From an uncultured bacterium (GTDB lineage: Bacteria; Armatimonadota; Abditibacteriia; Abditibacteriales; Abditibacteriaceae), in assembly GCA_963843795.1 (NCBI GenBank), contig CAWJLW010000006.1:1612001-1676000 (forward strand): 64,000 bases of DNA, in the 5' to 3' direction. Positions 1 through 64,000 of this stretch are shown here, one piece after another. Position 1 is the first letter of the stretch. The number at the start of each line of letters is the position of its first letter. The position numbers and the translations under genes are program-made. The notes under the pieces were generated by a model. It was given only the letters and a program-made list of their open reading frames with translations, did not search any database and was not told where the DNA came from.

Positions 1-1030
1 TTTTGCCATACAAATGCAATTTTAAATCTGCACATCCCAGAAGCGCGGCCCAATCGGGCGTGCCGTTTTCCCAACAATCGCCCAGCAAATTCGCCATCGC
101 CGCGGGGCGCAGCATTGTGGTTTGTCCCAAAGGCAGGCCACACACTGCGCGCAGCTGCTGCTCGAACTGGCTGGTCGAACACGCATCAATTGTCCAATGT
201 CCCGAATTGTGCGGACGCGGGGCCAATTCATTGATCACCAATTCGCCATTTCCCAACAAGAAAAATTCCACGCACAGCACACCAACGACTTGCAAAGTTT
301 CCAACACGGCACGCGCGATCTCAACCGCGCGCGCAAGTACTTGCCATGGGATTTGGGCAGGCGCAATCGTGACATCTAAAATCTGATTAACGTGACGATT
401 TTCGACTGCACCGTAGTGCACGAAATTCCCTTGCTCATCGCGCGCCGCCACGACGGAAATTTCGCGTTCAAAGCTCATCCATTTTTCCAGCACACCTTCG
501 TCGTCGCCCAAACCTCGCGCAGCCGCTTCCACATCATCAGGCGTTTTAATGACGAACTGGCCTTTGCCATCGTAACCGAAACCGGCAGTTTTCAAAACGC
601 AGGGCGCGCCAAGCTCCTGCACGCCGGCAAGTACTTGCGCGTGCCCGCGCACATGACGAAATGGCGCAATGGGAAAACCGTGCTGCGCCAGCCAATCTTT
701 TTCACGCTTGCGATGCTGCGTGATGTGTAGCACTTCGCCGCGTGGATGAACCGGCACTTGCGCCGCGCACGCTTCGACCGCACTCAATGGCACGTTTTCA
801 AATTCAAAAGTGACAACCGAAACTTCGCGCGCAAATTCGCTGATGCGCTCAATGTCGTGGTAGGAAGCTTGAATTTCGCGGTCGGCCACCTGTCCGGTCG
901 GCGTATCTTCGTCAGGCGAGTAAGTGTGCACGCGATAGCCCATTTGCCGCGCAGCAATTGCAAACATTCGTCCTAACTGGCCCGAACCCAACACGCCAAT
1001 TGTCGCGCCCGGCAATATCGTTTTGCTCAT
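1..1030 (-). CDS. purK: N5-carboxyaminoimidazole ribonucleotide synthase (3' end runs off the window)
   Basis: Manual translation from ATG 1030 gives MSKTILPGATIGVLGSGQLGRMF, and the same frame gives LKLHLYGK at the window edge. Lies downstream of purE. Absent from the ORF track because no stop falls in the window. Confidence 0.93.
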   Translation of the reverse strand, partial: MSKTILPGATIGVLGSGQLGRMFAIAARQMGYRVHTYSPDEDTPTGQVADREIQASYHDIERISEFAREVSVVTFEFENVPLSAVEACAAQVPVHPRGEVLHITQHRKREKDWLAQHGFPIAPFRHVRGHAQVLAGVQELGAPCVLKTAGFGYDGKGQFVIKTPDDVEAAARGLGDDEGVLEKWMSFEREISVVAARDEQGNFVHYGAVENRHVNQILDVTIAPAQIPWQVLARAVEIARAVLETLQVVGVLCVEFFLLGNGELVINELAPRPHNSGHWTIDACSTSQFEQQLRAVCGLPLGQTTMLRPAAMANLLGDCWENGTPDWAALLGCADLKLHLYGK

Positions 1031-1114
1031 AATTTTTGAGAGAAAATGAAAAAGATTTTACAGACTTTTTCACCGCAACTCCTGCAGCAGAGCGCAGCTG
1101 TCTGCATTGTTTCG

Positions 1115-1618
1115 TTATTCGCCCGGAATGGGATTATCCAGCACGCGCTGAGTTTGAGCAGCGCGATATTCGTCTAATCGCACGCGCAAATCTTCATCGT
1201 GATTGGCTAAAATCGCTGCGGCAAAGAGCGCGGCATTGGTTGCGCCCGCGTTGCCGATAGCCAGAGTACCGACAGGAATACCGGCGGGCATTTGCGCAAT
1301 CGAAAGCAGAGAATCCATGCCACTAAGCGCGCGACTTTGAACGGGCACACCCAGAACCGGCACGCTGGTTTGTGCGGCGATCATGCCGGGCAGATGCGCC
1401 GCGCCACCGGCTCCGGCGATGATGACTTGCAAACCTTGTTCACGCGCGCTTTGCGCAAATTCCGCCATCAATTGCGGCGTGCGATGCGCCGAAACCACGC
1501 GCGCGAGATAAGGAATTTCAAGTTGTACAAGTACTTGCACCGCATTTTTCATCGTTTCCCAATCGGATTGACTGCCCATAACGACCGCGACTTTTGCCGC
1601 CACTTTTGCGTTTTCCAT
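1115..1618 (-). CDS. purE: N5-CAIR mutase
   Basis: [26 protein letters not shown] and [11 protein letters not shown] motifs; start placed at MENAK. Confidence 0.96.
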
Positions 1619-1750
1619 TTTTTTCACCCCGCTCAATTTTGCCCCGCCGCGTGTTTGGACACAAGCACCGATTTGCAAATACAGTCGTATCAAATGCTTT
1701 TCACACACTTTGAACAAGGAATTTACCGCTCGCGACAGTAAACTATTCGG

Positions 1751-4246
1751 GTGAACGATTCGCTGGATTTTGTGCGTGCCATCGCGCGCTGGTGGCAACG
1801 TCCGCGTGTGCGACGTGGGGTCATGGCGCTGTTTGGATTGTGGTTTTTGAACGCCATCATCGGCACCATTACGGAAAAATGGTGGTGCGATGCGTTAGGC
1901 GTCGGTGCGTTGTGGGCCGCGCGCACGTTCGCGCAATGGCAACTTTTTTTCGCTTCCGCCCTGCTCAACTGCGCGCTTCTGCTGGCTCTAATTCATTTTC
2001 TCACTCCACATCGCGAGCAGCTTTTTCATGTTAACCAAACCAGCGTTCTGGTGCGTGGCGTGGCGGCTTACGCGCAGCACGGACGGCGTTTGGCGTGGTA
2101 CGGCGGCCTGCTTTGGGTGTGGTGGCAAAGTCGGCGTGCGGCCTTGTGGGGCGATGAATGGCTATTGTGGCGCAGCGGTACGAATTGGGGCGAGCGCGAT
2201 TTGAGTGGTGCCGATTGGAGCGCGTGGGTTTGGGGCTGGCCGCTGGTCGACGCCCTGAATCGCATCGTGTGGTCGAGCGTGACGTTGGCCTTGCTATTCG
2301 GATTCGCCTTACATTCCGCACAAATCGCGCTGCTTTCGCTGCGCCGGCAGAACGAAAACACTCTTCTGGGGGCGCGCCGTTTCTTGTGGTTTTTAGGCGC
2401 GCTCTGGTTCGCGTGTCTAGCCCTGCGCTATTATTGGCTTCGAGCGCAAAACGCTGTGACATGGCGCGGTAACGACGCGACGGTTCCCGCCGGCTGGGAT
2501 TGGCTGAGCTGGCATTGGACACGCTTGACCGACAACGCTGGAATCGCGCTGGCTGTTGGCGGATGCTTGCTGTGCGCGCTGGCTTTAATATTTTCTGCAA
2601 GTAATCGCAGGCACTTTTCGCGTTGGACGTGGAGCGCTGCGTTTGCGGCATGGTGGCTGCCGGGCACGTTGCAAGTACTTGTGGGCGGCCCACTGTGGCG
2701 ACTGGTCGTGGCACCCGATGAAAATGCCCGCGAGGCGCCTTTCGTGGCCGCCTATCGCACTGCGACGCAGCGCGCCTGGCGCGTCCAAACCCAGAGCCGC
2801 GTGGTGAAAGTCGAACCGGTGGGAATCTTAAACGCAGTCGAGCGCGCAGAACTGGAGCGCACGGCGCGGTTGTGGGACGAAGACGCGCTGCAAGCGACTC
2901 TGGGCGATGCCAACGCCAGTGTGCCCTCCACCCTCAATTACGAAAATAAACGTTTGGTTGGTGTTTCGACCGATGGCGTTTACGATGCAACGCGCGTCGT
3001 CGATGGCAAACCTCCACTTTTGCACGCTTTCACGCCTCCGATAAGCTGGCCGGTTCCTACAACTCATGAAACGCGCGGCGACATTGCACTGTCGGGCGCG
3101 GCGCGAGTTTTGTGGGCCTGGCGGCTGCGCGATGTCGGCGCGTTGTGGCGTTCCCGCGCGACGCTGCACACTGATTGGGACGAACGGGCACGCGCGCTTC
3201 TGCCGGGCGCGCGCCCAGTTGATGCCCCCTATTTGACACCACGAGGCTGGCTGGTGCAAAATCTCAGCGGCACCACAGCCCGCTTACCGGGTGTTTTGCG
3301 CGTGGCGAACTTGCGCGGTGAAAGCGCTCAAATCAGCGATTGCGCACAAATCGTGATCGCGCCTGCAGGCCAAACTCAATTATGGGCGAGCCGCGACGAC
3401 GAGCCTTGGGTGCGTGCGTGGCGCACGCTGGCAGGCGCGGCTCTGCGAAGCGGCGAGGGTGCGCCAGTGGGCAGGCGCACGTCGAAAAGCACGAGCGAAG
3501 CACGCGTGCAAGTTTGGAATCAATTGGAGCGCACGCCCAATCCGAACTGGTTGTGCAACGAAATCGAATACGCCCTGCTCGCGACGCCCGCAACTGGCGC
3601 GGGGCCAGCAGGCTCCCGCTGGGTTTTGCAGGGCGCAATCCGCGACCAAACGCGACTAGCAGGTTGGCTACAAATCGACGCCACAAATGAGAGCACACCA
3701 AATTCTGCCGACGCATGGCGAGTCTGGCAAATCGCGCCCAATCTGGCCCGTTTGGAACCTCTGTGGCCCTTGAACGAAGAAGCTGTGGATAGCGAGGCGG
3801 CCATCACAGCGCGCGCGACCGAGATGAAAGAAGCGCGCGTTCGCAGTAAAGTATTAATGGCTCCGTTGTGGCGTGGCGAGTCGGGACAAGCAACGCATGT
3901 GGCGTTGTTGTTGTGGCAAAACCAATATGAAGCGCCCAGCCCGGCGCGCTTACCATTGTGGGCCATGCCAATAACGGGTTGGCGATTGCATCGAGTGGCA
4001 CTCGGCGATGCGGCACGCGAAGATCGCGTGGTAGTTGCACGCAATGCTGGCGAACTGTTAGGTTTATGGTCGCAAGTCGCGCCGCCGCTCACGCCCGCCC
4101 AAAACGAAATTTTGGCCACACGTCACGCTGTGCAGCAGTTATTAAACCTGCTCGAACAAGAAGAAAAGGCGGCGCGAACTGGCGACTGGCCCAGCGCGGA
4201 AATTCTGCGCGATAAGCAACGCGAAATTTTGGAGCAGATGAAATGA
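1751..4246 (+). CDS. Divergent UPF0182-like membrane protein
   Basis: Multi-TM N-terminus (EKWWCDALG) followed by [22 protein letters not shown], resembling UPF0182 signatures; soluble C-terminal part. Confidence 0.55.
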
Positions 4247-4383
4247 AGTGAGGACGGAAGATTTCAAAAGGGAGAAGTAAGAAGGTTTTTGTCTCCGCAA
4301 GTACTTGCAGAGTGGAATTTATCCCTGCCACTTTTGAAATTTCCTTTTCATCTCTCAATTTTTTCCTCAATCAAAAGGTTTTT

Positions 4384-4677
4384 ATGCAATTGACGCCCGA
4401 ACAAGTCGATCACATCGCGCTGTTAGCGCGCTTGGAATTATCCGTTGAAGAAAAGCAGCGCGCAGCTGGTGAACTGTCGCAAATTCTCAATCACTTCGAG
4501 CAACTGTCACAGCTCGATACCGACGACATCGAACCAACCGATCACGTTTTGCCCTTGGTGAATGTTTTGCGCGCCGATATGCCGCGCCCAAGTCTGCAGC
4601 GCGAGGCCGCTTTACAAAACGCGCCCGAAGCCGCCGATGGCATGTTTCAAGTGCCGCGCGTTGTCGAAGCCGAATAA
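4384..4677 (+). CDS. gatC: Asp/Glu-tRNA amidotransferase subunit C
   Basis: [12 protein letters not shown]...[17 protein letters not shown]; upstream of gatA. Confidence 0.95.
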
Positions 4678-4709
4678 AATGCGCTGCACGTACGTGCAGC
4701 GCGCATTTT
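4676..4709. repeat. Hairpin centred on the motif variant TGCACGTACGTGCA
   Basis: aaaatgcgc-tgcacgtacgtgca-gcgcgcatttt between gatC and gatA. Confidence 0.8.
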
Positions 4710-4730
4710 CTCTTTACTCTTCTTACACTT

Positions 4731-6191
4731 ATGTCTCTTTTGCAACTTTCCGCGTTTCAATTAGCGCAGCAAATTCAGCACAAACAAGTCTCGTGTCGTG
4801 AAGCCGTCGATGAATATCTGACGCGCATTGAAAAAGTCGAAGATCGCGTAAAAGCCTTTGTCACCGTGACCGGTGAGGAAGCTCGCCGTCGCGCAGATAT
4901 GCTGGATCGTCGTCTGGCATCGGGCGAAGATATTGGCCCTTTGGGCGGCGTGCCGATTGCCGTAAAAGATTTGCTGTGTACGCGCGGCGTGCGCACGACC
5001 TGCTCGTCCAAAATGCTCCAAAACTTCGTTCCGCCTTACGATGCGCACGTTGTAGAGCGTTTGGCGACCGATGGCGCAATTTGCATCGGCAAGGCCAACA
5101 TGGACGAGTTCGCGATGGGTTCCTCGACCGAAAATTCGGCGTTTTTTCCGACGCGCAATCCGTGGAATCTCAATCGCGTGCCCGGCGGTTCCTCTGGCGG
5201 ATCGACGGCTGCGGTCGCGGCCTTGGAAGCGCCTTTGGCGTTGGGGTCAGACACCGGCGGCTCGATTCGTCAGCCGGCAGCTTACTGCGGCTCCGTGGGT
5301 ATGAAACCAACTTATGGTTTGGTTTCGCGTTATGGCTTAATCGCCTTCGCTTCTTCCCTCGATCAAATTGGCCCGATTGCCAATGATGTGCGCGATTGCG
5401 CTTTATTGTTGCAATCTATCGCCGGACACGACCGCCGCGATTCGAGTTCGATCAATCGCGCGCTGCCCGATTATGTGAACGCGCTGACCGGTGACATCAA
5501 AGGTTTGCGCGTTGGCGTGCCAGAAGAATATTTTGCGCAGGGCGTAGAAAGTTACGTCAGCGATGCGGTGCATAAAGCGATTGGCGAAATGGAAAACTTG
5601 GGCGCGCAAATTGTGCCGGTTTCAATGCCTTCGACCGAATACGCTCTGGCGACGTATTACATTATCGCGCCCAGCGAGGCGTCTTCGAACCTGGCGCGCT
5701 ACGATGGCGTGCAATACGGTTTGCGCGTGGCCGAAGCGGGCGACGACATCGTGGCGATGTATTCGAAAACGCGCGCCGCTGGTTTCGGCCACGAAGTCCA
5801 GCATCGCATTCTGATTGGCACGCACACGCTTTCCAGTGGATTTTACGACGCGTATTACCTCAAAGCTCAGAAAGTGCGCACTCTGATTCGCCGTGAATTC
5901 GAAGCGGCGTTTGAAAAATGCGACGTTCTGGCGACGCCGACCGCGCCAAGCGTAGCGTTTGAAATCGGTGCGCGCACCGATGACCCGTTCGCGATGAAAT
6001 TGGCCGATGTCTGCACAATTCCGGTGAATATGGCCGGTTTGCCAGCGATTTCCCTTCCCTGCGGAATGCACGAAGGTTTGCCGATTGGCTTACAACTGAT
6101 TGGCAACATTCTGGATGAAAGCACCGTGCTGCGCGCCGCGCATGCTTACGAACAAAACACGCCGTGGCACAAAGAGCGCGCGGCTTTATAA
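4731..6191 (+). CDS. gatA: Asp/Glu-tRNA amidotransferase subunit A
   Basis: Amidase signature [28 protein letters not shown]. Confidence 0.97.
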
Positions 6192-6232
6192 TTGACCACA
6201 CCTCCTCTGCAAGTACTTGCAGTGCCTTTGCT

Positions 6233-7705
6233 ATGTCCAAATATGAAATCGTCATCGGCATGGAAGTCCACGCCGAACTTCTGACAAACACCAAACAATT
6301 TTGCGCCTGTGCCAACGAAGCGGTCGCGCCGCCCAATACCAACATTTGCCCGGTGTGTCTGGGCTTTCCCGGCTCGTTGCCAGTTTTAAACGCGCGCAGC
6401 GTCGATTTGTCATTGCGCGCGGTTCTGGCTTTCAACGCCAGAATCAATCGGCGTTGTATCTTCGAGCGTAAGAACTATTTTTATCCCGATTTGCCCAAAG
6501 CCTACCAAATTTCCCAGCGGCTTTTGCCCCTTGGCGAAGGCGGCCACATCGAAATAGACGTGACACCAAGCGACGGCGAAACTTACACGCGCCGCGTCGG
6601 AATGCACGATGTTCACATGGAAGAAGACACCGGCAAATCCTCGCACGGCGAAGCCATTGGCGACCCCGATTCAAGTTTGATTGACTTCAATCGTTCGGGA
6701 ATTCCGCTCTTGGAAATCGTCTCATTGCCCGATATGCGCTCGATTGAAGAAGCCGAAGCTTATATGACGGCACTGCGCCAGCTACTTTTATATCTCGAAG
6801 TTAGCGATTGCAAAATGGAGCTAGGCCGCTTACGCTTCGAGGCCAGCGTTTCGCTTCGCCCGTTTGGTCAGGAGGAATATGGCACACGCGTCGAAGTCAA
6901 AAACCTCAACTCGATGAAAGCGGTGCGCGACAGCTTGCGCTATGAAATCGAACGGCAAACCAAGATGCTCGACAACGGTGAAACCATCCAACAGCAAACC
7001 ATGCTGTGGGACGACGCGACCGGAACTACGCAATCGATGCGTTCCAAGGAGCAGGCCCACGATTACCGTTATTTCCCCGAACCCGATTTGGTGCCAATTG
7101 ATATAGACGATGCATGGCTGCAACGCGTGAAAGATTCGATGCCCGAATTGCCGCGCGTCAAACATCAGCGTTTTCAAGACGACTTAGGCTTGTCGGCTTA
7201 TGAAGCGGGGGTTTTGACTTCGCAAAAACCGGTCGCCGATTATTACGAAGCGGCTTTGAATGGCTACACGCGCAGCGATGGACTGGCGCCGAAAATCGTT
7301 TCCAATTGGGTTTCCAATGAATTATTGGGGCGTTTGAACGCGCAGAACTTGGAAATCGGCGCATCGAAAGTCGCGCCCGAACAGTTGCGTGGCTTGCTGC
7401 AATTGATGGACGACGGCACGATTTCCGGCAAGTTGGCTAAAGAAGTTTTCGACGAAATGTTCGCATCGGGCAAAGACGCCAAAGCCGTCGTGGCCGAAAA
7501 AGGCTTGACGCAAATGAGCGATGAAAGCGAACTCGAAGCGATTTGCCAGCGCGTTTTGGAAGCCAATCCCAAAGCCGTCGAAGATTACAAAGGTGGCAAA
7601 CAGAAAAGTTTCGGTTCTCTGGTTGGCGGTGTGATGAAAGAAACCAAAGGTCGCGCCAATCCCGCATTGGTCAATTCACTGTTGAAAAAATTGTTGGAGA
7701 ATTGA
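6233..7705 (+). CDS. gatB: Asp/Glu-tRNA amidotransferase subunit B
   Basis: IGMEVHAEL, RKNYFYPDLPK, DYRYFPEPDL; start at MSKYEIV. Confidence 0.97.
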   Translation: MSKYEIVIGMEVHAELLTNTKQFCACANEAVAPPNTNICPVCLGFPGSLPVLNARSVDLSLRAVLAFNARINRRCIFERKNYFYPDLPKAYQISQRLLPLGEGGHIEIDVTPSDGETYTRRVGMHDVHMEEDTGKSSHGEAIGDPDSSLIDFNRSGIPLLEIVSLPDMRSIEEAEAYMTALRQLLLYLEVSDCKMELGRLRFEASVSLRPFGQEEYGTRVEVKNLNSMKAVRDSLRYEIERQTKMLDNGETIQQQTMLWDDATGTTQSMRSKEQAHDYRYFPEPDLVPIDIDDAWLQRVKDSMPELPRVKHQRFQDDLGLSAYEAGVLTSQKPVADYYEAALNGYTRSDGLAPKIVSNWVSNELLGRLNAQNLEIGASKVAPEQLRGLLQLMDDGTISGKLAKEVFDEMFASGKDAKAVVAEKGLTQMSDESELEAICQRVLEANPKAVEDYKGGKQKSFGSLVGGVMKETKGRANPALVNSLLKKLLEN

Positions 7706-7712
7706 AGTCTCA

Positions 7713-7760
7713 AAATGCAAAAAGCGCCCTGCAAGTACTTGCAGGGCGCTTTTTGCATTT
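7713..7760. terminator. 48-bp perfect palindrome, probable bidirectional terminator, motif-centred
   Basis: aaatgcaaaaagcgccctgcaagt|acttgcagggcgctttttgcattt between convergent genes. Confidence 0.8.
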
Positions 7761-7768
7761 CGATCGCA

Positions 7769-8576
7769 TTATTTGCGATACCAATCGCGCAACACGACGC
7801 GCGTACCGCTGCCTTGTAGAGCGTTTTTGAACTGAAGCGAATTTTCGTTGGGCTTATCGAACGGAAAACGATAGTGATAAGGCGCAACTTGTTTGGGATG
7901 AAAAGCGCGCACGCCCTGCGGCGGCTTCGAGCGGAGTCATCGTATAAGGCAAGTTCATCGGCAGAAATGCCAAATCCAGACCGCGTATTTGTTTCATTTC
8001 CGGTGTGATTTCGGTATCGCCCGCGACGTAAATGCGCTTACCATCTATGTTCAACACATAACCGTTGAATTGGCCTTTGGGATGATATTTTTTGTCGGCT
8101 TCGGGGCCGCGCACAAGATTATAAGCGGGCACAGCGCGCACAAAGATGGTTATCGGCTTGTTCTTGTCGGAGGTCAGCAAAAACTTTACGGTCTGGCCGT
8201 TGCCAAGTGTCGTGACTTCTGGATTTTTAATCTCTTTTTCGGCTAATTGATCGGTCACAGCTTTGGGCGCGACGATGCGAGTGTGGTCGTTGGAAACGCG
8301 CTTGATGGCTTCGGGATCAAAATGGTCGGAATGAGTGTGCGTTATGAGCAGAATATCGGCTTTGGCAGCATGCGAGTAATCGCCCTGCGAAAACGGATCG
8401 ACGTGAATCGTTTTGCCGCGATAATCAATCTGCATCGAAGCATGAAAAATTGGCGTAATGCGAATCGGCCCGCCTTTGGCCTGCAGAATAATTGGCGTAT
8501 CAATCGCCTGCGCGACAGATGCGCTCGAAACGATAAACAAAGCAGCAGCAATAAATGGTCTGGCAAGTACTTGCAT
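7769..8576 (-). CDS. Secreted MBL-fold metallo-hydrolase (+1 frameshift near 7915)
   Basis: Signal peptide, THTHSDH, AGDTE, LPMNLPYTM; the alternate frame continues FHPKQVAPYHYR to TAA at 7769. Confidence 0.8.
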
Positions 8577-8595
8577 AATTATTCTCCTTGAATTT

Positions 8596-11018: not shown

Positions 11019-11035
11019 GCGAATCAGTCAACCCG

Positions 11036-11073
11036 AAAAAAGCACGCTGCAAGTACTTGCAGCGTGCTTTTTT
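11036..11073. terminator. 38-bp perfect palindrome, probable bidirectional terminator, motif-centred
   Basis: aaaaaagcacgctgcaagt|acttgcagcgtgctttttt between convergent genes. Confidence 0.8.
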
Positions 11074-14275: not shown

Positions 14276-14348
<73 letters not shown>

Positions 14349-27170: not shown

Positions 27171-27896
27171 TTATTCTTTTCGTTCTGTTCCGTAATCAGC
27201 ACGATACTGCTGCTTTTGTAAGGGCTTCCACAAACCGCACACAATTAAAGGTGCAATGCGCGTGTAAAATGCGCTGAGTTTCCAGAAACCATCGCGCGCG
27301 TAACGTCGCCCTGAAGTTTCCAGCGGGACGAGCAAATGGCGATGCCAGCCATAGCGAGGTGAGGCGCGACGTAGAAAATGCACGTCTTCGCCCAAATGCA
27401 AATTTTCATCGAAGCCACCGCACTTTTCCCACGCTTCTCGTCGCGCGATAATACAAACGCCCGAACCGGTGCGCAAAGTACTTTGGCCCAGCCAAAACAA
27501 CAGATTGAAAACCCAATACGCCACACGCACGCTCAGGCCAGCATCGCGCGCCACGAACCATGGGCAGGCTACCGCAAAGGGAAAACGGCGATAAGAACGA
27601 ACAACATCGCACACGAAAGTTGGCGCGGGCCGGTCATCGGCGTCCATGAAAATTATCAATTCGCCGGTCGCTTTTTCCGCGCCCGCATTGCGCTGATGGC
27701 TGACGCCGCGCTCAGTTTGCACGGCAAGTACTTGCGGATGTTGGTGTACAATCCCAAGTGTGCCATCAGCAGAATTGCCATCGCTGACGATGATTTGCAA
27801 CTCGCCGTCGAATTGCTGCGCTTCTAAAGCACGCAACAAGGTTTCAATGTTGCGCGCTTCGTTTAAAGTAGGGATGACAACAGAAACGGAATTCAT
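27171..27896 (-). CDS. GT2 glycosyltransferase
   Basis: VVIPTLNE, SDGNSADGT, FMDAD, GGFDE, ED. Confidence 0.9.
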   Translation of the reverse strand: MNSVSVVIPTLNEARNIETLLRALEAQQFDGELQIIVSDGNSADGTLGIVHQHPQVLAVQTERGVSHQRNAGAEKATGELIIFMDADDRPAPTFVCDVVRSYRRFPFAVACPWFVARDAGLSVRVAYWVFNLLFWLGQSTLRTGSGVCIIARREAWEKCGGFDENLHLGEDVHFLRRASPRYGWHRHLLVPLETSGRRYARDGFWKLSAFYTRIAPLIVCGLWKPLQKQQYRADYGTERKE

Positions 27897-28658: not shown

Positions 28659-28733
28659 TCCCCGATAGCTCAACGGTGGAGCATCCGACTGTTAATCGGA
28701 GGGTTACTGGTTCGAATCCAGTTCGGGGAGCCA
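28659..28733 (+). tRNA. tRNA-Asn(GTT), CCA encoded
   Basis: TCCCCGATAGCTCAACGGTGGAGCATCCGACTGTTAATCGGAGGGTTACTGGTTCGAATCCAGTTCGGGGAGCCA. Confidence 0.95.
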
Positions 28734-29795: not shown

Positions 29796-29843
29796 AAAAG
29801 TAAAAAGCGCGCTGCAAGTACTTGCAGCGCGCTTTTTACTTTT
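29796..29843. terminator. 48-bp perfect palindrome, probable bidirectional terminator, motif-centred
   Basis: aaaagtaaaaagcgcgctgcaagt|acttgcagcgcgctttttactttt. Confidence 0.8.
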
Positions 29844-36262: not shown

Positions 36263-36304
36263 GTGATGGTGTTCGCAGCAAGTACTTGCTGCGAACACCA
36301 TCAC
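36263..36304. repeat. 42-bp perfect palindrome, motif-centred
   Basis: gtgatggtgttcgcagcaagt|acttgctgcgaacaccatcac; no U tract. Confidence 0.85.
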
Positions 36305-36963: not shown

Positions 36964-37027
36964 GAATCCGCAACACAAAAAACGCTCCTGCAAGTACTTG
37001 CAGGAGCGTTTTTTGTGTTGCGGATTC
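36964..37027. terminator. 64-bp perfect palindrome, motif-centred, abutting the tRNA-Val 3' end
   Basis: gaatccgcaacacaaaaaacgctcctgcaagt|acttgcaggagcgttttttgtgttgcggattc. Confidence 0.85.
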
Positions 37028-37100
<73 letters not shown>

Positions 37101-40359: not shown

Positions 40360-40393
40360 CGAAGCGCCCTGCAAGTACTTGCAGGGCGCTTCG
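40360..40393. repeat. 34-bp perfect palindrome, motif-centred
   Basis: cgaagcgccctgcaagt|acttgcagggcgcttcg; the central 30 bp match 7722-7751. Confidence 0.85.
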
Positions 40394-41858: not shown

Positions 41859-41889
41859 GTCGCAAGTACTTGCAGCAAGTACTTGCGAC
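41859..41889. repeat. Tandem double motif forming a higher-order palindrome
   Basis: gtcGCAAGTACTTGC-a-GCAAGTACTTGCgac. Confidence 0.92.
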
Positions 41890-43363: not shown

Positions 43364-43403
43364 GTAAAAAATGCTCTGCAAGTACTTGCAGAGCATTTTT
43401 TAC
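43364..43403. terminator. 40-bp perfect palindrome, motif-centred
   Basis: gtaaaaaatgctctgcaagt|acttgcagagcattttttac after the M16 peptidase gene. Confidence 0.78.
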
Positions 43404-47762: not shown

Positions 47763-47794
47763 AGAGCTTGCTGCAAGTACTTGCAGCAAGCTCT
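47763..47794. repeat. 32-bp perfect palindrome, motif-centred
   Basis: agagcttgctgcaagt|acttgcagcaagctct. Confidence 0.85.
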
Positions 47795-53432: not shown

Positions 53433-53438
53433 ATTGTT

Positions 53439-54734: not shown

Positions 54735-54741
54735 AATAAAT

Positions 54742-55893: not shown

Positions 55894-55917
55894 GCGGCAG
55901 GTACTTGCATCCCCATT

Positions 55918-56631
55918 ATGAGCGCAGACAAAGAATTTGAAGACGTTCACGCCGAAGATCAAGACGAACTGGACGCCGTTGTTATCATCGACAACGGCGA
56001 ACCGTTGGTTGATTTTTTGAAAGACGCGCCGCCGCAACTGGTTTTTGCACCGACGCATCCAGTCTTTGAAATCGCGCGCGTTCATCTGGCACGGCAAAGC
56101 ATGGCGCGCATGTTACACGAAGCCGCACGCGCTTTGCCCGCAGGTTTGCGTTTGCAAATTGTCGAAGCCTATCGTCCAATTGAAACGCAGCGTTTGATGT
56201 TCGCGCACGCCTTACAACGCGCGCGCGAGCGCTTCCCTAACTCCGACGAAGAAACTATCGTGCGTGAAGCTGGTCGCTACTCGGCTCCGCCGGATGCGAT
56301 TACGCCACCGCCACACATCACCGGCGGCGCGGTGGATTTGGGAATCATTGATGAAAACGGCGAAAGATTAGATTTCATTTCGCCTTTCGAAATGATGGAT
56401 CAAAAACAAGCCGCGATGCACGCGCGCGGCTTGAGCGAAATTGCCGAGCGCAATCGCGCTTTGCTGCGTTCAGTTTTGGAGCCGACAGGCCTGACCAATT
56501 ACGCCGACGAATGGTGGCATTGGAGTTATGGCGATAATGGCTGGGCTTTACGCGTCGGCGCTCCGCACGCAATTTATGACAAAATCGCGCTACCAGATGA
56601 TGCGCATTGGATTGGCGGGCCGGATGCGTGA
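55918..56631 (+). CDS. M15-family D-Ala-D-Ala dipeptidase-like (VanX/DdpX)
   Basis: EAYRP, HITGGAVD, EWWHWSYG. Confidence 0.88.
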   Translation: MSADKEFEDVHAEDQDELDAVVIIDNGEPLVDFLKDAPPQLVFAPTHPVFEIARVHLARQSMARMLHEAARALPAGLRLQIVEAYRPIETQRLMFAHALQRARERFPNSDEETIVREAGRYSAPPDAITPPPHITGGAVDLGIIDENGERLDFISPFEMMDQKQAAMHARGLSEIAERNRALLRSVLEPTGLTNYADEWWHWSYGDNGWALRVGAPHAIYDKIALPDDAHWIGGPDA

Positions 56632-56655
56632 GGCAAGTACTTGCGGGGCGATTTT

Positions 56656-57654
56656 ATGAGAATTAGCAAGCGACAAGAAGTTGCGCCGAAAGAAATTTGG
56701 AGCATGGAAACCCAATTTAGTGCGTGGCTGGCTTCGGAAGCGGGCTTGGAGTTGATTGCCTCGGATATTGGCATCGAAGTCGAAAACGCGCGCACCGAAT
56801 GTGCGCCGGGCGATTTTCGCTGCGATATTGTGGGCAATGCGTTGGGCGATGAAAATCATCGCATTGTGATTGAAAATCAATATGGCAAAACCGATCACGA
56901 CCATCTGGGCAAAATGTTGACGTATGCAGCAGTTCACGAAGCAACGACTGGAATCTGGATTTCCGAGCGCATTTCCGACGATCATCGCCAAGTTATCGAT
57001 TGGCTAAATTCTATAACGCCCGCCAATGTGAACTTTTATCTGGCGCAAATCAAAGCGTATCGCATTGATGATTCAGCCGTCGCGCCGGAACTGGATGTGA
57101 TTTGTCGGCCAAATTTGGACGTCAAAATTCAACGCGGCCAGAGTAAGAAAGAATTGAAAGAGCGTCATATTTGGCGTAAAGAATTTTGGGACGATGTTTT
57201 ACCTTACATAAAAGACCAAAACCCGCCCTTCAATCTACAAAGTCCAGGCATTAAATATTGGTCAGCGATTGCATTGGGACGCACTGATTTTTGGTTGGAG
57301 TTAGTCACAAAGTTGCGAAATCCGTGTATTCGCTGCGAAATCTGCATCAAAACACCATGGCGCTTGGCCGCATACGAACAACTCTACGAGCAACGCGCAG
57401 AGATCGAAAATGAAATAGGATGCAAATTGGAGTGGATTGCATTAGAAGGGAAAAGCTATACGCGCATTGGGGTAAGTAAGGAAATTGATCCCAAAGACGA
57501 AAACAATCGCGATGAAATTAAGCGTTGGATGAATCATTACGCAACAGCTTTCTATCGCGTATTTCGACCGCGCATCCAAAATCTCGATGCCGATTATGAA
57601 GCAGAAATCGTCCCGCAAGTACTTGCACCGCAAGAGCAACACACATTTAACTAA
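56656..57654 (+). CDS. DUF4268-domain protein with N-terminal PD-(D/E)XK-like nuclease
   Basis: DIVG...[18 protein letters not shown]-terminal FW...[11 protein letters not shown]. Confidence 0.75.
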
Positions 57655-57668
57655 TTTCTAAAAACAAT

Positions 57669-59316
57669 ATGCCTAAACGAACTGATATTCACAAAGTTAT
57701 GGTCATCGGCTCCGGCCCGATTGTCATCGGACAAGCCGCCGAATTTGATTACGCCGGAACTCAAGCCTGCGCTTCGCTGCGCGAAGAAGGCATTTCGGTC
57801 GTCTTGGTCAATTCCAATCCGGCGACGATTATGACCGATGCCGATACTGCCGATGCGGTTTATATCGAGCCGCTGACCGTCGGGTTTTTGGAACAAGTCA
57901 TCGCCAAAGAACGGCCCGATGGACTTTTGCCCAGTTTGGGCGGACAAACCGGTCTGAACATGGCCTACGAATTGGCCGAAGCCGGAATTCTGGATAAATA
58001 CAACGTCGAACTTTTGGGCACGCCGTTGACTTCGATTAAAAAAGCCGAAGACCGCGATTTGTTCAAGGCCACGATGCAACAAATCGGGCAGCCGGTTCCC
58101 GAATCGGTCATCTGCGACAACATTCGAGGAAGCGCGCGCTTTCCGCGATAACATCGGCTATCCGCTGATTATTCGCCCGGCCTACACGCTGGGCGGAAGC
58201 GGCGGCGGCATCGCGTGGAACGATGAACAATTGGAACAATTCGTGCGTTCGGGTCTGGATCGCTCGCTGATCCATCAGATTTTGCTGGAGCGTTATCTCG
58301 TCGGTTGGAAGGAAGTCGAATATGAAGTGATGCGCGACGCCAACGACACGGCGATCACGATTTGCAACATGGAAAACTTCGATCCGATGGGCGTTCATAC
58401 TGGCGATTCCATTGTGGTCGCGCCCAGCCAAACGCTTTCCGACAGAGAATATCAAATGTTGCGCAGCGCGAGTTTGGAGATTATTCGCGCACTGGAAATC
58501 GAAGGCGGCTGCAATGTGCAACTCGCGCTTGATCCGCATTCGCCCGCGTATTATGTAATTGAAGTCAATCCGCGCGTCTCGCGCTCATCGGCTTTGGCCT
58601 CGAAAGCAACTGGTTACCCAATTGCGCGCGTTTCGGCCAAAATTGCCATTGGCTTTCATTTAGATGAAATCGCTAACGCTGTTACGCAGAAAACTCTGGC
58701 GTGTTTTGAACCGGCGCTGGATTATTGCGTAGTGAAAATTCCGCGCTGGCCGTTCGATAAATTCTCGACTTCCGACCGGCGCATCACGACGCAGATGAAA
58801 GCGACGGGTGAAGTGATGAGCATCGACCGCAACTTTGAATCGGCGCTGATGAAAGCCTTGCGTTCGCTGGAAATCGGCGTGGTCGGTTTGCGCTTAAAAG
58901 GCGTCGGTTTGCTGAGCGAAATGGAAATCGAAGAGAAATTGCGCGTGGCAACCGACGAGCGCATTTTCGTGATCGCCGAAGCCTTTCGTCGCGGAATGTT
59001 GATTGATGAAGTGCATCAATTAACGAACGTTGATCGCTGGTTTTTGCACAAAGTGCTGCGTTTGGTTGAATTGGAAACCGAACTGCGCGAAACGACATTA
59101 GACAAAATCACGCGCGAAGAATTGTTGCACGCCAAGAAATTAGGCTTCAACGATGCACAGTTGGCACAGTTGTTGAGTTGTGATGAAAGCGAATTGCGCC
59201 AGAAGCGTAAAGATTGGAATATCGTGCCGGTGTATAAAATGGTTGATACCTGCGCTGGTGAGTTCGAAGCGGAAACGCCGTATTATTATTCGTGCTACGA
59301 AACCGAAAACGAGTAA
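57669..59316 (+). CDS. carB: Carbamoyl-phosphate synthase large subunit, N-terminal half only (+1 frameshift near 58128)
   Basis: [33 protein letters not shown]; ends [23 protein letters not shown]. Confidence 0.92.
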
Positions 59317-59361
59317 AATTGTCCTGCAAGTACTTGCAGGCAAAAACTAGAGGAGACAATC

Positions 59362-59586
59362 ATGGCGACGAAGAAACAAACGGACGAAAGCATTACAACA
59401 AACGAAGCAGCCACAGAAGAACCGAAATTAACGCCTTTGCAGCGCGTGAAGCAGCAGCAATCTCGGATGCAGCAAGCGCGTAGCGCAGGCACTTCGCGCA
59501 AAATCAGTGGCGAAGATGACGCAGCGGGCACAACCGAAGGCGGCACCAAACGCATTGATTTACAACGTCGCAGTGGCGGCGGATAA
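59362..59586 (+). CDS. Small hydrophilic protein (C-terminus RRSGGG)
   Basis: Strong AGGAG RBS, 74 aa, followed by a terminator. Confidence 0.65.
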   Translation: MATKKQTDESITTNEAATEEPKLTPLQRVKQQQSRMQQARSAGTSRKISGEDDAAGTTEGGTKRIDLQRRSGGG

Positions 59587-59591
59587 ATAGA

Positions 59592-59651
59592 AAGTTGAAG
59601 AATAAAAAGCGCGCTGCGAGTACTTGCAGCGCGCTTTTTATTCTTCAACTT
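59592..59651. terminator. 60-bp near-perfect palindrome centred on a motif variant
   Basis: aagttgaagaataaaaagcgcgctgcgagt|acttgcagcgcgctttttattcttcaactt. Confidence 0.8.
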
Positions 59652-59695
59652 CGTTTTTAAGTCAACTTCGTTTTTAGGTCAACTTGGTTTTTAAG
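59645..59695. repeat. 17-bp tandem repeat, three copies
   Basis: tcaacttcgtttttaag / tcaacttcgtttttagg / tcaacttggtttttaag. Confidence 0.88.
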
Positions 59696-60470
59696 TCGCG
59701 CTTTTCGCAGCTTTGATGGGAGCTTCCACATCAGCTTTCTTAGCTTTCAAGCGCGTAATCGTACACGCATACGCTTTAGTTTCGGGCCTGGTCACAGTTT
59801 GATTATTAGACACTGCAACAATGGCGTTTTCCAAGTCGGTGCTTTGAATTTGGCTGGTATCGTAGATGCTATCATCGACGCGACCGTGATAGCGCAGTTT
59901 GCCTTCGCGGTCGAGCAAAAACGCTTCTGTCGTGCATTGAACGTTGAACAGATTCATCAATTTCTGGTCGCCATCGCGCACCAAGGGCCAGTTGTAACCG
60001 CGTTTTTGAGCGAATTGTTTGATTTGCGCGGAATCTTCTTCGGGTAGAGGAAAAACATAAATCACGCGCAAGCCTTGCGCAGCGAATTTTTGCTGCAAAG
60101 TTTTCATGCGGCTATCGTAGGCTTGCACGCACGGGCAAATCATGTCGGCAAAGAATACAAGCGGCATCTGGCCGCGCAGCTCAGAAATGCGATGAGTTTT
60201 GCCATCGACATCGGTGTAAGCGAAATCGGGCACCGGATGGTTGAGAGCGACAGTTTTGGTGTCGGCGACAGCTTGGGAGTAGCTGTGCGGCGAGGAAAAG
60301 GTAATGCCCGCGTTCTGTCGGTTGGTGCTGTCTCCGCCGCCCGAAATCCCCATCGAAGCGGCGGCGGCAACTGCGATAATCGCTGCGCCAATCGGCAGCA
60401 CAATAGGCCAATAGCGCATCCAACGACGCGGTTTTGGCTGGCGCGACGAACTCGATTGATTTTGTGTCAT
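59691..60470 (-). CDS. Membrane-anchored redoxin (AhpC/TSA-like)
   Basis: PDFAYTDVDG, CPC, LRYHGRVDD, AYAC. Confidence 0.85.
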   Translation of the reverse strand: MTQNQSSSSRQPKPRRWMRYWPIVLPIGAAIIAVAAAASMGISGGGDSTNRQNAGITFSSPHSYSQAVADTKTVALNHPVPDFAYTDVDGKTHRISELRGQMPLVFFADMICPCVQAYDSRMKTLQQKFAAQGLRVIYVFPLPEEDSAQIKQFAQKRGYNWPLVRDGDQKLMNLFNVQCTTEAFLLDREGKLRYHGRVDDSIYDTSQIQSTDLENAIVAVSNNQTVTRPETKAYACTITRLKAKKADVEAPIKAAKSAT

Positions 60471-60934
60471 GAGTTTGCTCCGGTTTTGGCGGCCAAATTC
60501 AGCTTTGTCGAAGCGGGCAAGATTTCGATGTTGTCGATAATCAGACCTTTGCCCAACTTCAAATCGAACCGAATTTTGTCGCCTGCTTTAATCTTTTCGG
60601 CATCGGCATCGTTACGCAGCGGAATCGTCATACGCATCGCTTCCATAAAATCAGGGATTTTTTCATGGTCGATTTCCACTGCGGATGGCTCCTTAGCTTG
60701 TGCGGGCTTTACCACCGCGACGATTTGGCCGCGCACGCCAGCATAAATTTTTTCGTTTGGTGAAGTCGCCTCTGACGCAGTTCCGACCGTTGCACTTTTG
60801 GCAATTGCATTCTCGGCAATTGCATTCTCGGCAATTGCATTCTCGGCAGAATTTGGAGCCGAATTATCGGGTGCGCCGCAGCCAGAGAGCGCCAAGACAC
60901 ATCCCAAAGCACCAACGAGGAAGTTGGTTTTCAT
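60467..60934 (-). CDS. Lipoprotein with CusF-like copper-binding domain
   Basis: Lipobox LSGC; IDHEKIPDFMEAMRM; GDKIRF. Confidence 0.8.
   Translation of the reverse strand: MKTNFLVGALGCVLALSGCGAPDNSAPNSAENAIAENAIAENAIAKSATVGTASEATSPNEKIYAGVRGQIVAVVKPAQAKEPSAVEIDHEKIPDFMEAMRMTIPLRNDADAEKIKAGDKIRFDLKLGKGLIIDNIEILPASTKLNLAAKTGANS
60801..60848. repeat. 15-bp coding tandem repeat, three copies (AENAI)
   Basis: gcaattgcattctcg x3. Confidence 0.9.
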
Positions 60935-61089
60935 AGAAAATCCTTTTCGCAACCAAGCGAAGTATTCGGTTGAAGGCTTTGAGTGTGATACCATTTCGTG
61001 CGCGCAGCACGCGCCAATTGGTTATCAATCTATTGGGCTGTGCGTTTACTGTGCCTTTCTATTAATCCGCGCCTTCTCACTTGGAACAG

Positions 61090-64000
61090 TCAGGCGTTTT
61101 CATGGCGCCACTTTTTGGGCAGATAAACTGAAAATGTGGTGCCCTGCCCGATTTGGCTTTGCACTTCTATACGGCCCCCGTGTGCTTCGACCAATTGTTT
61201 TACCAGATATAAGCCCAATCCGGTGCCTTTAATGCCACGCTGCTGAGCATCGGGAGTGCGATAATACTTTTGGAACAAATTCGTCACTTGTTCTGCACTC
61301 ATGCCCATCCCCTGATCTCTGACATGGAGAACCACTTCATCGCCCTCTGCAAGTACTTGCAGCGTAATTAGACCACCTTCGGGCGAGTATTTAAACGCAT
61401 TAGAAAGCAAATTATTCAAAACCTGCTCGATACGATCCGGGTCGAAATCGGCCATAATCGGACGAATCGGCGCTTCGAAAGCCATCTGATATTCTTCACG
61501 ATTACCGAGCGCGCGACGATGTTCGTTCAGCATTCGCTCGCCCAGCGCGACCAAATCGGCGTATTGCGGACGAAATGATAGTGTGTGACCGGCATCGAGC
61601 CGGGAAACATCGAGCAGTTCGGAGATCATGCCATTTAAGCGTTTGCAATGCTCTACGATGACGCTGCTCATCTCGCCGCGCTGCGCGCTATCCATGTTTT
61701 CGCCCGCGCCCTGTAACAGCGATGCATAACCCAAAATCGTCGTCAGCGGAGTGCGCAATTCGTGCGCGACATAAGAAATGAATTCGGTTTTCATTCTGTC
61801 CAGTTCGCGCTGTAACGTCACATCGGCCACGACTAGCATTGCGCCCAGAGGGCACTTATTTTCGCCCAGCAAGGGTACAAGATGCGACGACAAAACTAGC
61901 GGCTTCAAGTCCGTATTGTCGCTTTTACTTCTGTCTTTGGCATTTTCCAGCACAACGTGACGCACAAATTCGCGCTGAATTTTCTGTGGGCTATCAGCTT
62001 TATCAACTCGGGCAGACGGGCTTGGGATGAGCGAGTCGAAAAGGGTCGCCAGTTCCGGCCAACCGTGCGAATTCAGAAAAAGGGGAACGTTCGTGCCGAT
62101 GGGCGGCGTGGCACCGCGCAAAATTCTCCAGGCAGCACCATTGACATATACCGCGCACGCGTTTTCGTCGGTAATAATAATGACGTCTTCAATATTTTCG
62201 ATGGACGCCAACATCTTGATATTCTGCTCGCTCATTACCGAATACGCCAAAGCCAGCTCGCGGTCGGCGGCTTCGATACGGCCTTGCAATTGTTCATGAA
62301 AAGCTACATTTTCCAAAGCCAGAGCGGTCTGTGCTGCCAAATTTTCCAGTAAAATCGCTTCTCGCGGGCCAAATATGCGACCATTGCGCTGTCCCAAAGC
62401 TACAAAAACCTCGCCGCTCGCCACGTTTTGATTTTCACCTTCATCGGCTTGCATCAAAGGCGCTGCTACCAAAGTACGCGATAACGGGAGCGAGCCACGG
62501 CTGCTGCGCATTTGCTGGAAAAGGTGCGCGCATATTTCATGCAAATCTGCGTGTTCGCTTATGACCTGGAATCCGTGGCGCTCAGAACTGCGCTCATGTT
62601 TGTTTAGGTGCGTACGCTGAGGTTGAATCTGGCGCACGCGCTGCCACATCTCACTGGGACGTTCGTCGCTTTCGACAATGGCCGCGGGCCATAAAATCGC
62701 GCGTTGCTCGCGCATAACGGCATTGGCTAATTCGGCGCGCAGGGTCTCATCCGTCGCCAACTTATCCGACACGGGTGGGGTGCAAGTACTTGCGGTTACG
62801 ATCCACACATATTGAGCATCCAAGACTTCGCGCGCAGTCTGCAACGCGACCTGTCGCAAGCGCTGGCGGTCGTAACCAGCTGCGATAAGCGCGCCTCCCG
62901 CCAGCGTGGTCATCGCGCTATCGGCACGCCAACTGGCTTCCCACGAACGTCGATAGTTATAAGACATCACCACCGCATAAGTGAGAATAACTCCAGCCAA
63001 CGGTTCCATTAGCGGCAAATAAGTATCAATAAATGTCAGCAGCAAAACCGCCGTTAACATCCAACTCGCGGCGAGCGCCAGTGCCCAAAGCGTCCCGCTG
63101 CGCGCCTGTCGCGGTGCCACCAGAGCTCCAGTTGCCAGGCACACCAAAACCAGCAAGGCTGGCGCGCTCCAATCGGGAGCGATGTGCAAAGGCCGATTTT
63201 GTAAAATATCGTTGGCGGCGTTGGCTTGAAGCTCGATAGCGGGTTGGGCTGACGAAAAAGGCGTAGAGCGAAATTCATACGCGCCCGCTGCCACAATGCC
63301 CACGAAAACCATGCGATTTTTCAGTTGCGCGCGCCCCACTCGACCATCCAAAACGTCCTGATAAGTAAAAGTCGGAAAAGTTCGGTAACTACCGGACCAG
63401 TTGATCCAACTTTCTCCTTCATTATCGATGGGAACACGCCGCACGCCGATGTCTATAAATTGATCATGCGCGCTAATTTCTTGCGGCGCAATGCCCAGCC
63501 AGTGCGCCGAGGCCGCCAAAGCCAACGAAGGAAAAACGCGGTCGCGATAACGAATCAGGTGCGGTATGCGCAGAAGCGAACCGTCGCTTTCGGGAAAAAT
63601 ATTAAGATGGCCAATGGAAGCAGCGCTCTGACTGAGTGCTGACCACGAAGAACTAACCCACACCGCGCTTTGAGCACGAACATTGTGTGAAGAAACCGCA
63701 AAACGATTGGGTAACGTAAACACATTGGCACGCGTGCTGGCCGGGACTTGCGCGGCAGAAATCGAGGGCACGATGAACGCTGCCGCTTGCACGACGTTAT
63801 TGGCACGGCGCGATAGCTTGGCCAGAAGTTCATCGTCGGCCAGAGAAGGCGATGGCTCGGAAAATAAAATGTCGAAAGCGACAGTTTTGGCGCCCTGCTC
63901 TACCAATCGTTGCAGAACACGAGCATGAAGCGAGCGCGGGAGAGGCCAACTTTTGGCGCGTGTCACGGTCGCATCATCGGCCACGATAATTACAATGTTA
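61090..64000 (-). CDS. CHASE2-GAF-PAS sensor histidine kinase (5' end outside the window)
   Basis: WPLPRS, FDILF (CHASE2); AHELRTPLT H-box; NLLSNAFKYS, DQGMG, GTGLGL. Confidence 0.93.
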   Translation of the reverse strand, partial: NIVIIVADDATVTRAKSWPLPRSLHARVLQRLVEQGAKTVAFDILFSEPSPSLADDELLAKLSRRANNVVQAAAFIVPSISAAQVPASTRANVFTLPNRFAVSSHNVRAQSAVWVSSSWSALSQSAASIGHLNIFPESDGSLLRIPHLIRYRDRVFPSLALAASAHWLGIAPQEISAHDQFIDIGVRRVPIDNEGESWINWSGSYRTFPTFTYQDVLDGRVGRAQLKNRMVFVGIVAAGAYEFRSTPFSSAQPAIELQANAANDILQNRPLHIAPDWSAPALLVLVCLATGALVAPRQARSGTLWALALAASWMLTAVLLLTFIDTYLPLMEPLAGVILTYAVVMSYNYRRSWEASWRADSAMTTLAGGALIAAGYDRQRLRQVALQTAREVLDAQYVWIVTASTCTPPVSDKLATDETLRAELANAVMREQRAILWPAAIVESDERPSEMWQRVRQIQPQRTHLNKHERSSERHGFQVISEHADLHEICAHLFQQMRSSRGSLPLSRTLVAAPLMQADEGENQNVASGEVFVALGQRNGRIFGPREAILLENLAAQTALALENVAFHEQLQGRIEAADRELALAYSVMSEQNIKMLASIENIEDVIIITDENACAVYVNGAAWRILRGATPPIGTNVPLFLNSHGWPELATLFDSLIPSPSARVDKADSPQKIQREFVRHVVLENAKDRSKSDNTDLKPLVLSSHLVPLLGENKCPLGAMLVVADVTLQRELDRMKTEFISYVAHELRTPLTTILGYASLLQGAGENMDSAQRGEMSSVIVEHCKRLNGMISELLDVSRLDAGHTLSFRPQYADLVALGERMLNEHRRALGNREEYQMAFEAPIRPIMADFDPDRIEQVLNNLLSNAFKYSPEGGLITLQVLAEGDEVVLHVRDQGMGMSAEQVTNLFQKYYRTPDAQQRGIKGTGLGLYLVKQLVEAHGGRIEVQSQIGQGTTFSVYLPKKWRHENA

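Follow-up and report, generated by a model that had tools for sequence, protein, structure and literature searches.

The window analyzed here is a 64,000-nucleotide stretch of the genome of an uncultured bacterium in the Abditibacteriaceae (contig CAWJLW010000006.1), and it carries many copies of a 12-bp perfect palindrome, GCAAGTACTTGC, which we call the word. Our recount gave the same 44 exact and 17 one-mismatch copies, coding and intergenic, that the initial annotation had reported from the letters of the window. The exact copies start at 333, 627, 4297, 6209, 7731, 8563, 11049, 15382, 16104, 17237, 19619, 21088, 21214, 21721, 24434, 25144, 25499, 27724, 29814, 31887, 32393, 36278, 36990, 37893, 40371, 41862, 41875, 43378, 44871, 45921, 46708, 47183, 47773, 50111, 50728, 51426, 52295, 53567, 54466, 56633, 57615, 59326, 61349 and 62782 (the last copy ends at 62793). 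The one-mismatch copies span 1527-59627 and start at 1527, 2671, 12358, 13051, 14127, 16848, 20408, 23569, 23995, 26223, 27117, 27917, 28577, 49483, 51993, 55897 and 59616. According to our own gene calls (3539 genes genome-wide, some split by apparent indels), 16 of the 44 exact copies are coding and are read as QVLA, KYL or ASTC (starts 333, 627, 8563, 21214, 25499, 27724, 44871, 45921, 47183, 50728, 51426, 53567, 54466, 57615, 61349 and 62782). The remaining 28 are intergenic, and eight of these are central to long hairpins.

Convergent genes flank the hairpins at 7713-7760 (perfect and terminator-like, with a central copy, 18 extra pairs, A/T tracts and a folding energy of -37.7 kcal/mol), at 11036-11073 (13 extra pairs), at 29796-29843 (18 extra pairs, -36.0 kcal/mol) and at 43364-43403 (14 extra pairs). 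Two hairpins follow stop codons, at 36263-36304 (15 extra pairs, 31 bp past the stop) and at 47763-47794 (10 extra pairs, 27 bp past the stop). The longest, at 36964-37027, adds 26 pairs to the word and adjoins a tRNA gene on the minus strand, and another with 11 extra pairs lies at 40360-40393. Two copies stand in tandem at 41862-41886, 13 bp apart. The gene at 27171-27896 contains a single CAAAGTACTTTG (27474-27485), the variant word, or dialect, of a sister species, present here as a peregrine copy. An Rfam search of the window returned three tRNAs only (14276-14348, 28659-28730 and 37028-37100).

In the whole assembly (G000; 4.30 Mb, 11 contigs, 92% complete), the word occurs 2567 times, or about once per 1.7 kb, and each of the 11 contigs carries it. 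The expectation is 0.32 copies under an order-2 Markov model and 0.65 under an order-3 one, and the runner-up among palindromic 12-mers has 33 copies; the repeat is not restricted to the window. Along most of the 3.6-Mb contig, bins of 100 kb contain 47-83 copies, whereas the first has 30 and the short last one 0; the density is even across the skew switch, with no gap at the terminus. The 14-bp form given in the initial annotation needs qualification: the 12-mer is fixed, but the outer T/A is a preference, found at 66% on each side. We also confirmed that the copies are real. Contigs from run X1, which may be the source sample, cross the window copies at 6209 and 8563 without gaps, and L020, a 2.9-kb contig of another species that is 77% identical to G000, carries the perfect word three times, and those aligned places that can be compared show either the word or a one-off variant of it. 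Because X1 contigs span copies gap-free and L020 carries the word, an assembly artifact is excluded. A 16-mer scan of genome contigs returned at least 36 stretches; among the matches listed, 35 have one copy of the 12-mer and L020 has three. L020 is filed in a Gemmatimonadaceae metagenome-assembled genome, yet uses the dialect of G000, and is probably misbinned.

Island-like stretches of G000 are depleted in the word. The conjugative-looking 33-kb end of contig C6 (3590136-3623414; 63% GC) is motif-free or motif-poor, as are the phage-tail-like or prophage-like contigs C3 and C4. Viral scans showed no phage resembling the host among the loci inspected, with the larger scans covering the matches listed. 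An unrelated low-GC phage (L530, L550, L594; IMG/VR 3300009514_000019 and 3300009537 contigs) repeats GTGCAAGTACTTGCACT at gene boundaries in an operator-like manner. A literature search by title and abstract start, with subscription papers and supplements outside it, found no description of GCAAGTACTTGC or of such a system.

Across G000, 1794 copies are intergenic (about 70%; 1.8-4.2 per kb), 753 are coding (0.20 per kb) and 20 lie across a gene or contig end. The coding copies are read as QVLA (495), KYL (145) and ASTC (113), and the peptides QVLA, KYLQ and ASTC are in 14-, 15- and 40-fold excess. The motif's codons are used by 503 of the 567 QVLA peptides, where 0.4% is expected. Among the intergenic copies, 545 extend into hairpins with at least six extra pairs (a fifth of all copies being terminator-like), and of the 312 tandem hairpin copies, 181 are followed by TTTT on the sense strand. 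One might consequently ask whether a preference for RNA hairpins or terminators created the word. As a sole cause it is refuted by the existence of coding copies: 484 of the 753 have no arm extension, and coding copies show no excess of arm symmetry. Together with an assembly artifact, which the word's presence in independent contigs and other genomes contradicts, we regard this account as exceedingly unlikely. Rather, hairpin copies peak 10-35 bp past stop codons, and terminators have therefore co-opted the word secondarily.

The pattern of variants is informative about how the word is read. If RNA pairing were the relevant state, a G-U wobble bias would be expected, and it is absent: A4G and T9C variants number 5 and 7 in hairpins, and 21 and 22 elsewhere (C12T and G1A number 5 and 1 in hairpins, and 20 and 10 elsewhere). 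Constraint is spread across all 12 positions, with A4G and then G1A as the commonest one-off variants, and core variants (G5A 32, T6C 43) are no rarer than arm variants (C2T 23, A3G 35). Because coding copies lack extension, wobble bias is absent and constraint covers all twelve positions, the word is probably read as double-stranded DNA by a symmetric factor.

We compared G000 with 60 relatives, each of which has 0-3 copies of the exact word, which makes it a species-level feature. The system, however, is a family-level one, and GCAAGTACTTGC is one of its dialects, which the initial annotation had missed. Six of the 26 family genomes have an abundant dialect of their own cored on GTAC, generally as AGTACT; this hexamer occurs 2813-4733 times in G001, G009, G012, G015 and G019, and 1-285 times in the other 21 family genomes. 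In the DNA that we fetched, the dialect is CAAAGTACTTTG in G001, TCGAGTACTCGA in G009, G015 and G019, and GAGTACTC with free flanks in G012. The form in G006 is a 24-bp palindrome, AGTACGGTCGAWWTCGACCGTACT, with two GTAC sites 18 bp apart. Such a two-GTAC architecture, around a GAATTC-like center, is also seen at locus L280, and at L271 (6596-6617) it stands alongside a single-GTAC dialect. Among 80 metagenome loci fetched with methylase homologs, 18 are AGTACT-rich or two-GTAC, several of them short and weakly supported, and they supply the further words AAAAGTACTTTT, GGAGTACTCC and ATGAGTACTCAT. In a GatB tree, the seven motif-bearing genomes form a polytomy with G003, G004, G017 and genus g5.

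Protein-guided alignments to G001 and G009, over about 270 and 420 kb, respectively, show how copies arise within genes. Coding copies arose mostly by in-register substitution, with no gap within 15 bp in 34 of 41 cases (G001) and 21 of 32 cases (G009), together 55 of 73, although gaps near aligned coding copies are commoner than the 9-10% background. For 5 of the 41 copies (G001) and 4 of the 32 (G009), the same codon holds the other species' dialect; at aligned VL-VL positions, the counts are 4/13 versus 6/156 (G001) and 3/4 versus 10/200 (G009). No sites are shared with G006 (0/10) or G012 (0/4), and most sites turn over between species. Several dialects occur together on contig C2 of G000 (18.7 kb, metal pumps) and at loci L287, L311 and L321, with up to 15 AGTACT in 3.3 kb; genes at these three loci include outer-membrane efflux genes, a methylase homolog and a YdjM gene. 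Such mixed-dialect cargo, which looks mobile, may record past hosts, or a lineage with a loose word. The 7.8-kb contig L380 (G024:C98) holds 9 of the 18 AGTACT sites of a GTAC-poor genome, and is either foreign DNA or misbinned.

These alignments bear on a mobile origin. A miniature element similar to repetitive extragenic palindromic (REP) sequences, copied by a REP-associated tyrosine transposase (RAYT), would account for the 70% intergenic share and the many copies in hairpins, and the G006 and L280 forms are indeed 22-24 bp hairpins with GTAC at both feet. A recombinase or RAYT origin had been among the processes offered in the initial annotation, and it is not supported by the coding copies, which are mostly in-register substitutions without excess arm symmetry. 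One copy at most per spacer is the rule, and the GTAG/CGTC end tag that defines REPs is missing (PMC3733652; here and below, cited papers are relied on for the parts available to us). We also rejected RAYT as a candidate gene: there is one weak Y1_Tnp match in G000 and none in G006, with many in motif-less genomes. A REP-like origin is accordingly very unlikely, and for the 12-bp form it is largely refuted.

The word does not stand alone; it lies at the dyad of a helically phased segment of about 110 bp, a second feature absent from the initial annotation. Around it, A/T content rises and falls every 10.5-10.7 bp. This holds for each of the three reading frames and for spacers outside hairpins, at an amplitude of 0.050-0.067. 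Controls are flat, including other GTAC sites (0.005), AAnnnnTT (0.004) and xVLA peptides in other codons (0.012). The xVLA value, compared with 0.050 at the word, rejects helix amphipathy as the source of the period; the exact QVLA control has 12 sites only and is noise. The AA/TT signal runs for about 50 bp to either side and peaks about 8-9, 18-21, 29-30 and 39-42 bp outward from each end, a fifth peak being faint, while TA is flat around the word and the two arms are uncorrelated. The phasing signal declines as mismatches to the word increase from 0 to 4 (3.1, 2.6, 1.9, 1.3 and 0.2). At 10.6 bp, the AA/TT amplitude exceeds the maximum of a shifted-site null in G000 (0.076 versus 0.015), and the corresponding amplitudes do so in G001 (0.026 versus 0.018) and in G009, G015 and G019 combined (0.032 versus 0.015). 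Phasing is not significant in G012 (n = 99) or at loci with AAAAGTACTTTT, the AAAA dialect (n = 80), and is not evident in G006. For neighboring copies 14-70 bp apart, the separations cluster close to multiples of 10-11 bp (n = 105; in a scan over 8-13 bp the best period was 10.85 bp, with Rayleigh Z = 22.7), and this clustering does not extend beyond 70 bp. The geometry of the flanks resembles that of a nucleosome or of IHF.

Spacing between copies is compensated. Spacers hold mostly 0 or 1 copy, with a mean of about 0.6-0.7 for lengths from 60 to 800 bp, and gaps over 4 kb are fewer than simulated (71 versus 114), indicating even spacing. The median distance from a coding copy to an intergenic copy is 1031 bp, compared with 680 bp after shuffling. 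When zero, one or two flanking spacers are occupied, coding density falls from 0.28 to 0.09 to 0 per kb in genes up to 600 bp, and from 0.39 to 0.23 to 0.065 per kb in genes of 600-1200 bp; each of the four gene-length classes shows this fall. A single copy every 1-2 kb appears to be enough. Given the phased flanks, the in-phase neighbors and the reduced number of gene copies beside occupied spacers, we infer a symmetric reader that recognizes bent double-stranded DNA and acts at intervals of about 1-2 kb.

Such a reader could shape the chromosome itself. A lineage-specific dimeric protein would bind the dyad inside the cell and, either unaided or with recruited gyrase or HU, wrap or bend about 110 bp; selection would keep one particle per 1-2 kb, and the periodicity would be a bending preference or a mutational footprint. 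This is possible, if somewhat doubtful. It explains the long two-sided phasing better, as the AA/TT peaks are symmetric, the TA profile is flat, the arms are independent, and the signal is present in all frames and in non-hairpin spacers. The in-phase neighbors and even spacing fit it too. The E. coli gyrase motif has a 47 + 36 + 47 bp layout with periodic arms (PMC13284261), the word agrees with -4G/+8C and -2A/+6T of the type IIA consensus (PMC10117906), and a chromosomal role has been proposed for HIP1, the highly iterated palindrome of cyanobacteria (PMC5861425). On the other hand, the word fails -1T/+5A of that consensus and other dialects fail -4G, the terminus shows no gap, and selection alone would probably rewrite thousands of sites with more difficulty than drive would. 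More specifically, the word might be the address of a wrapped nucleoprotein particle of about 110 bp placed every 1-2 kb by a dimeric reader, as a species-specific chromatin positioning code, which we consider unlikely. If true, the reader's specificity would vary by species and rewrite thousands of sites, proteins included, and the code might double as a self-tag in gene exchange.

Candidate readers were sought among HU, GyrA, TetR/SlmA proteins, histones and RAYT, and none fits or tracks the motif. G000 has no histone-fold match at its 92% completeness and no TetR_N match, the latter unusual for a 4.3-Mb genome. HU was rejected because it does not track dialect: the HU of motif-less G017 is 81-83% identical to those of motif-bearing G009, G015 and G019 (alignment of 21 sequences from the 30 genomes with a match), and G000 has a single HU. 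GyrA was rejected because its DNA-gate region is alike across dialects (the G001 protein was not recovered); each of the 29 genomes with a match has a single type IIA A-subunit. Most of the family has an 11-17 aa insert in the GyrA C-gate (L351-L378), whether or not the motif is present; G003, G017 and the outgroups lack it. ParB was also rejected: one copy is chromosomal beside 5 parS sites, three others are in island-like or small contigs, and they do not track the motif.

No causal gene is evident in the window, as the initial annotation had said; it had suggested correlating the word with GTAC/AGTACT methyltransferases. Elsewhere in G000, at C6:2517365-2518135, lies its sole PF01555 (N6_N4) methylase, a 256-aa orphan beta-class adenine enzyme with a DPPY motif; PF02086 and PF00145 methylases gave no match in G000. 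The nearest solved relative is M.RsrI, and named homologs, which assign the host to Abditibacteriaceae, include one at 77% from Abditibacterium utsteinense. Orthologs occur in 21 of 31 class genomes, covering all 7 with the motif and also 14 of the 24 without it, which does not support the conserved enzyme as a sufficient cause. Its C-terminal region is conserved across dialects. In a quick tree, the G020 methylase (L140/L383, G020:C88) groups with those of G000 and G001 and not with its own genus, by transfer or misbinning. Motif-bearing genomes have no nuclease beside the methylase; a gene with HARE-HTH and an Mrr nuclease lies directly upstream of it in G005, G014 and G025 (L153, L155, L119), and because it is full-length only there, it is not a general partner of the methylase.

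The methylase brings in methyl-directed repair, as in Elhai's model for HIP. An orphan methylase would mark GTAC, a nicking or repair factor would prefer the marked site in one flank context, and mutations toward the word would go to fixation until each repair tract contains about one site, while the word would have no function of its own. We consider this quite unlikely. It covers the core and the density: the methylase is single, its ortholog reaches every motif-bearing genome, G000 encodes MutS and a MutL signature, and under the model copies should saturate near 1 per kb (PMC4390886). No GTAC occurs in 68 kb of G005, G007, G008 and G014, which are methylase-bearing and motif-less, but GTAC is present in four relatives without the gene. 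It is also the most depleted 4-bp palindrome, with an observed/expected ratio of 0.46, in the 63 AGTACT-poor of the 80 metagenome loci, a set read without a methylase-free control. However, GTAC is a putative target, G013 and G016 are GTAC-poor without a methylase match, and G003, G004 and G017 have the methylase and keep GTAC. The many motif-less carriers, a C-terminal region constant across dialects, and one-off variants as common in the core as in the arms, unlike the first- and last-base bias of HIP1, all count against the model, and the phased flanks are left unexplained. Separately, 12-20 kb of each of G005, G007, G008, G013 and G014 contain no GTAC, an extreme avoidance.

The co-occurrence of a fixed-core dyad with changing arms, phased flanks and kilobase saturation requires one cause. 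Our tentative preference, which we hold with slightly less than even confidence, is that the word serves natural transformation as a self-tag at the species level and was spread by drive in the manner of the uptake sequences of other bacteria and of HIP1. The tag, on double-stranded DNA, would be read by a two-fold symmetric factor that prefers bendable DNA, most likely during uptake or the recombination step after it, and tagged fragments would enter or recombine more often. Molecular drive would then propagate point mutations that create a tag or improve its flanks at any site able to tolerate them: freely in spacers, within genes at permissive codons and, secondarily, in the cores of intrinsic terminators. 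Little would be gained from another tag within about 1-2 kb, giving even, compensated spacing. A shift in the reader's specificity would rewrite the outer bases around the invariant AGTACT core, giving dialects, and a possible role of the conserved orphan m6A methylase is to license the site by marking its GTAC core. Such a license is compatible with a transformation tag and with chromosome architecture alike, and the mechanisms can combine. Drive through uptake or recombination, with precedents for phased tracts in Pasteurellaceae and for dialects in Neisseriaceae, would explain dialect change, island depletion and saturation most economically.

Competence genes, mentioned in the initial annotation, are present, though ComEC and the pilin searched for are family-wide. 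G000 encodes ComEC, ComEA, a DprA signature and a type IV pilus operon. Several observations weigh against transformation. ComEC (30 of 31 genomes), a minor pilin (27 of 31) and the methylase reach motif-less relatives too, no receptor was found, and competence is predicted only, several pilus genes (and EF-G) being split by apparent indels in the assembly. Syntenic spacers show no significant co-occurrence of copies between species (n = 13-36). The established uptake sequences are asymmetric, whereas GCAAGTACTTGC is a perfect dyad, and 1302 of 2000 uptake signal sequences lie in open reading frames (PMC3458573), compared with our intergenic share of about 70%. Phasing over about five turns on both sides, together with that of neighbors, fits a chromosome-seated particle at least as well. 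About 25 DUF1559-type pseudopilins are encoded in G000, and at 61090-64000 of the window and just past it (L382) lies a CHASE2 histidine kinase with a pilin-N-terminus/FecR fusion gene ahead.

For three decades there has been no settled answer to why HIP1-type words exist, and to our knowledge sequence-specific uptake is established in only two families. The Abditibacteriaceae provide a natural experiment: among close relatives, some carry one dialect or another in thousands of copies, while others lack the motif or are nearly free of GTAC; a reader should therefore be findable by comparative genomics and pull-down. Helical phasing and compensated spacing are measurable signatures that separate uptake drive, a repair ratchet and chromosome architecture, and HIP1, like other iterated palindromes, can be examined for them. 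Barriers to gene exchange would follow from dialects, which would also label past hosts of mobile DNA.

We finally compare the system with those already described. HIP1 (GCGATCGC) and its alternates are likewise perfect palindromes that recur about once per kb throughout the genome, inside genes and between them (PMC4390886, PMC5861425, PMC13756078), with a possible orphan-methylase site at the core, alternate words in some lineages and an unresolved cause; HIP1 also raises transformation in a way that depends on methylation (bioRxiv 10.1101/2024.09.10.611283). HIP1 words are 5-8 bp long and cyanobacterial, whereas the word here is 12 bp, of another sequence and hosted by Abditibacteriaceae, with fast species-level dialect turnover, a strong intergenic bias and terminator use. 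One-off variants of HIP1 are concentrated at the first and last base, in contrast to constraint over all 12 positions, and 10.6-bp phased flanks are not seen for HIP1 in the available parts of PMC4390886 and PMC5861425. The DNA uptake sequences (DUS) of Neisseriaceae share a length of about 12 bp, thousands of copies, dialects on an invariant core (eight, with a conserved CTG), peregrine copies, terminator co-option and permissive coding positions (PMC3630211). DUS pair up to form hairpins (PMC3630211), while GCAAGTACTTGC is its own dyad, and no ComP-like receptor was identified here in a search that covered one minor pilin. The uptake signal sequences (USS) of Pasteurellaceae have a four-base inner core with helically phased A/T tracts, which in Haemophilus are a defining feature thought to aid kinking, and USS too are co-opted as terminators (PMC3458573). 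USS have two tracts on one side; here, about five periods extend on both sides and neighbors are in phase.

Other palindromes resemble the word in part. The SlmA-binding sequence (SBS), GTGAGTACTCAC, is also a 12-bp palindrome with an AGTACT core, although it has 52 sites that are excluded from Ter and bound by a TetR-family protein (PMC3020112), as opposed to 2567 sites, no terminus gap and no TetR match. The gyrase motif has a dyad, a 4-bp center and periodic arms over 110-130 bp (PMC13284261, PMC10117906), but it is degenerate with a 36-bp non-periodic center (PMC13284261), whereas here the word is fixed and periodicity is strongest beside it. REP elements are abundant palindromes downstream of genes; unlike them, the word has no end tag, flanks no RAYT, arises by substitution instead of insertion and has many coding copies (PMC3733652). 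The initial annotation's view of a HIP1- or uptake-sequence-like system that mixes the features of both and matches neither is supported: the system is of the HIP/uptake-sequence kind, yet its defining features place it outside HIP1, DUS/USS, REP and SBS.

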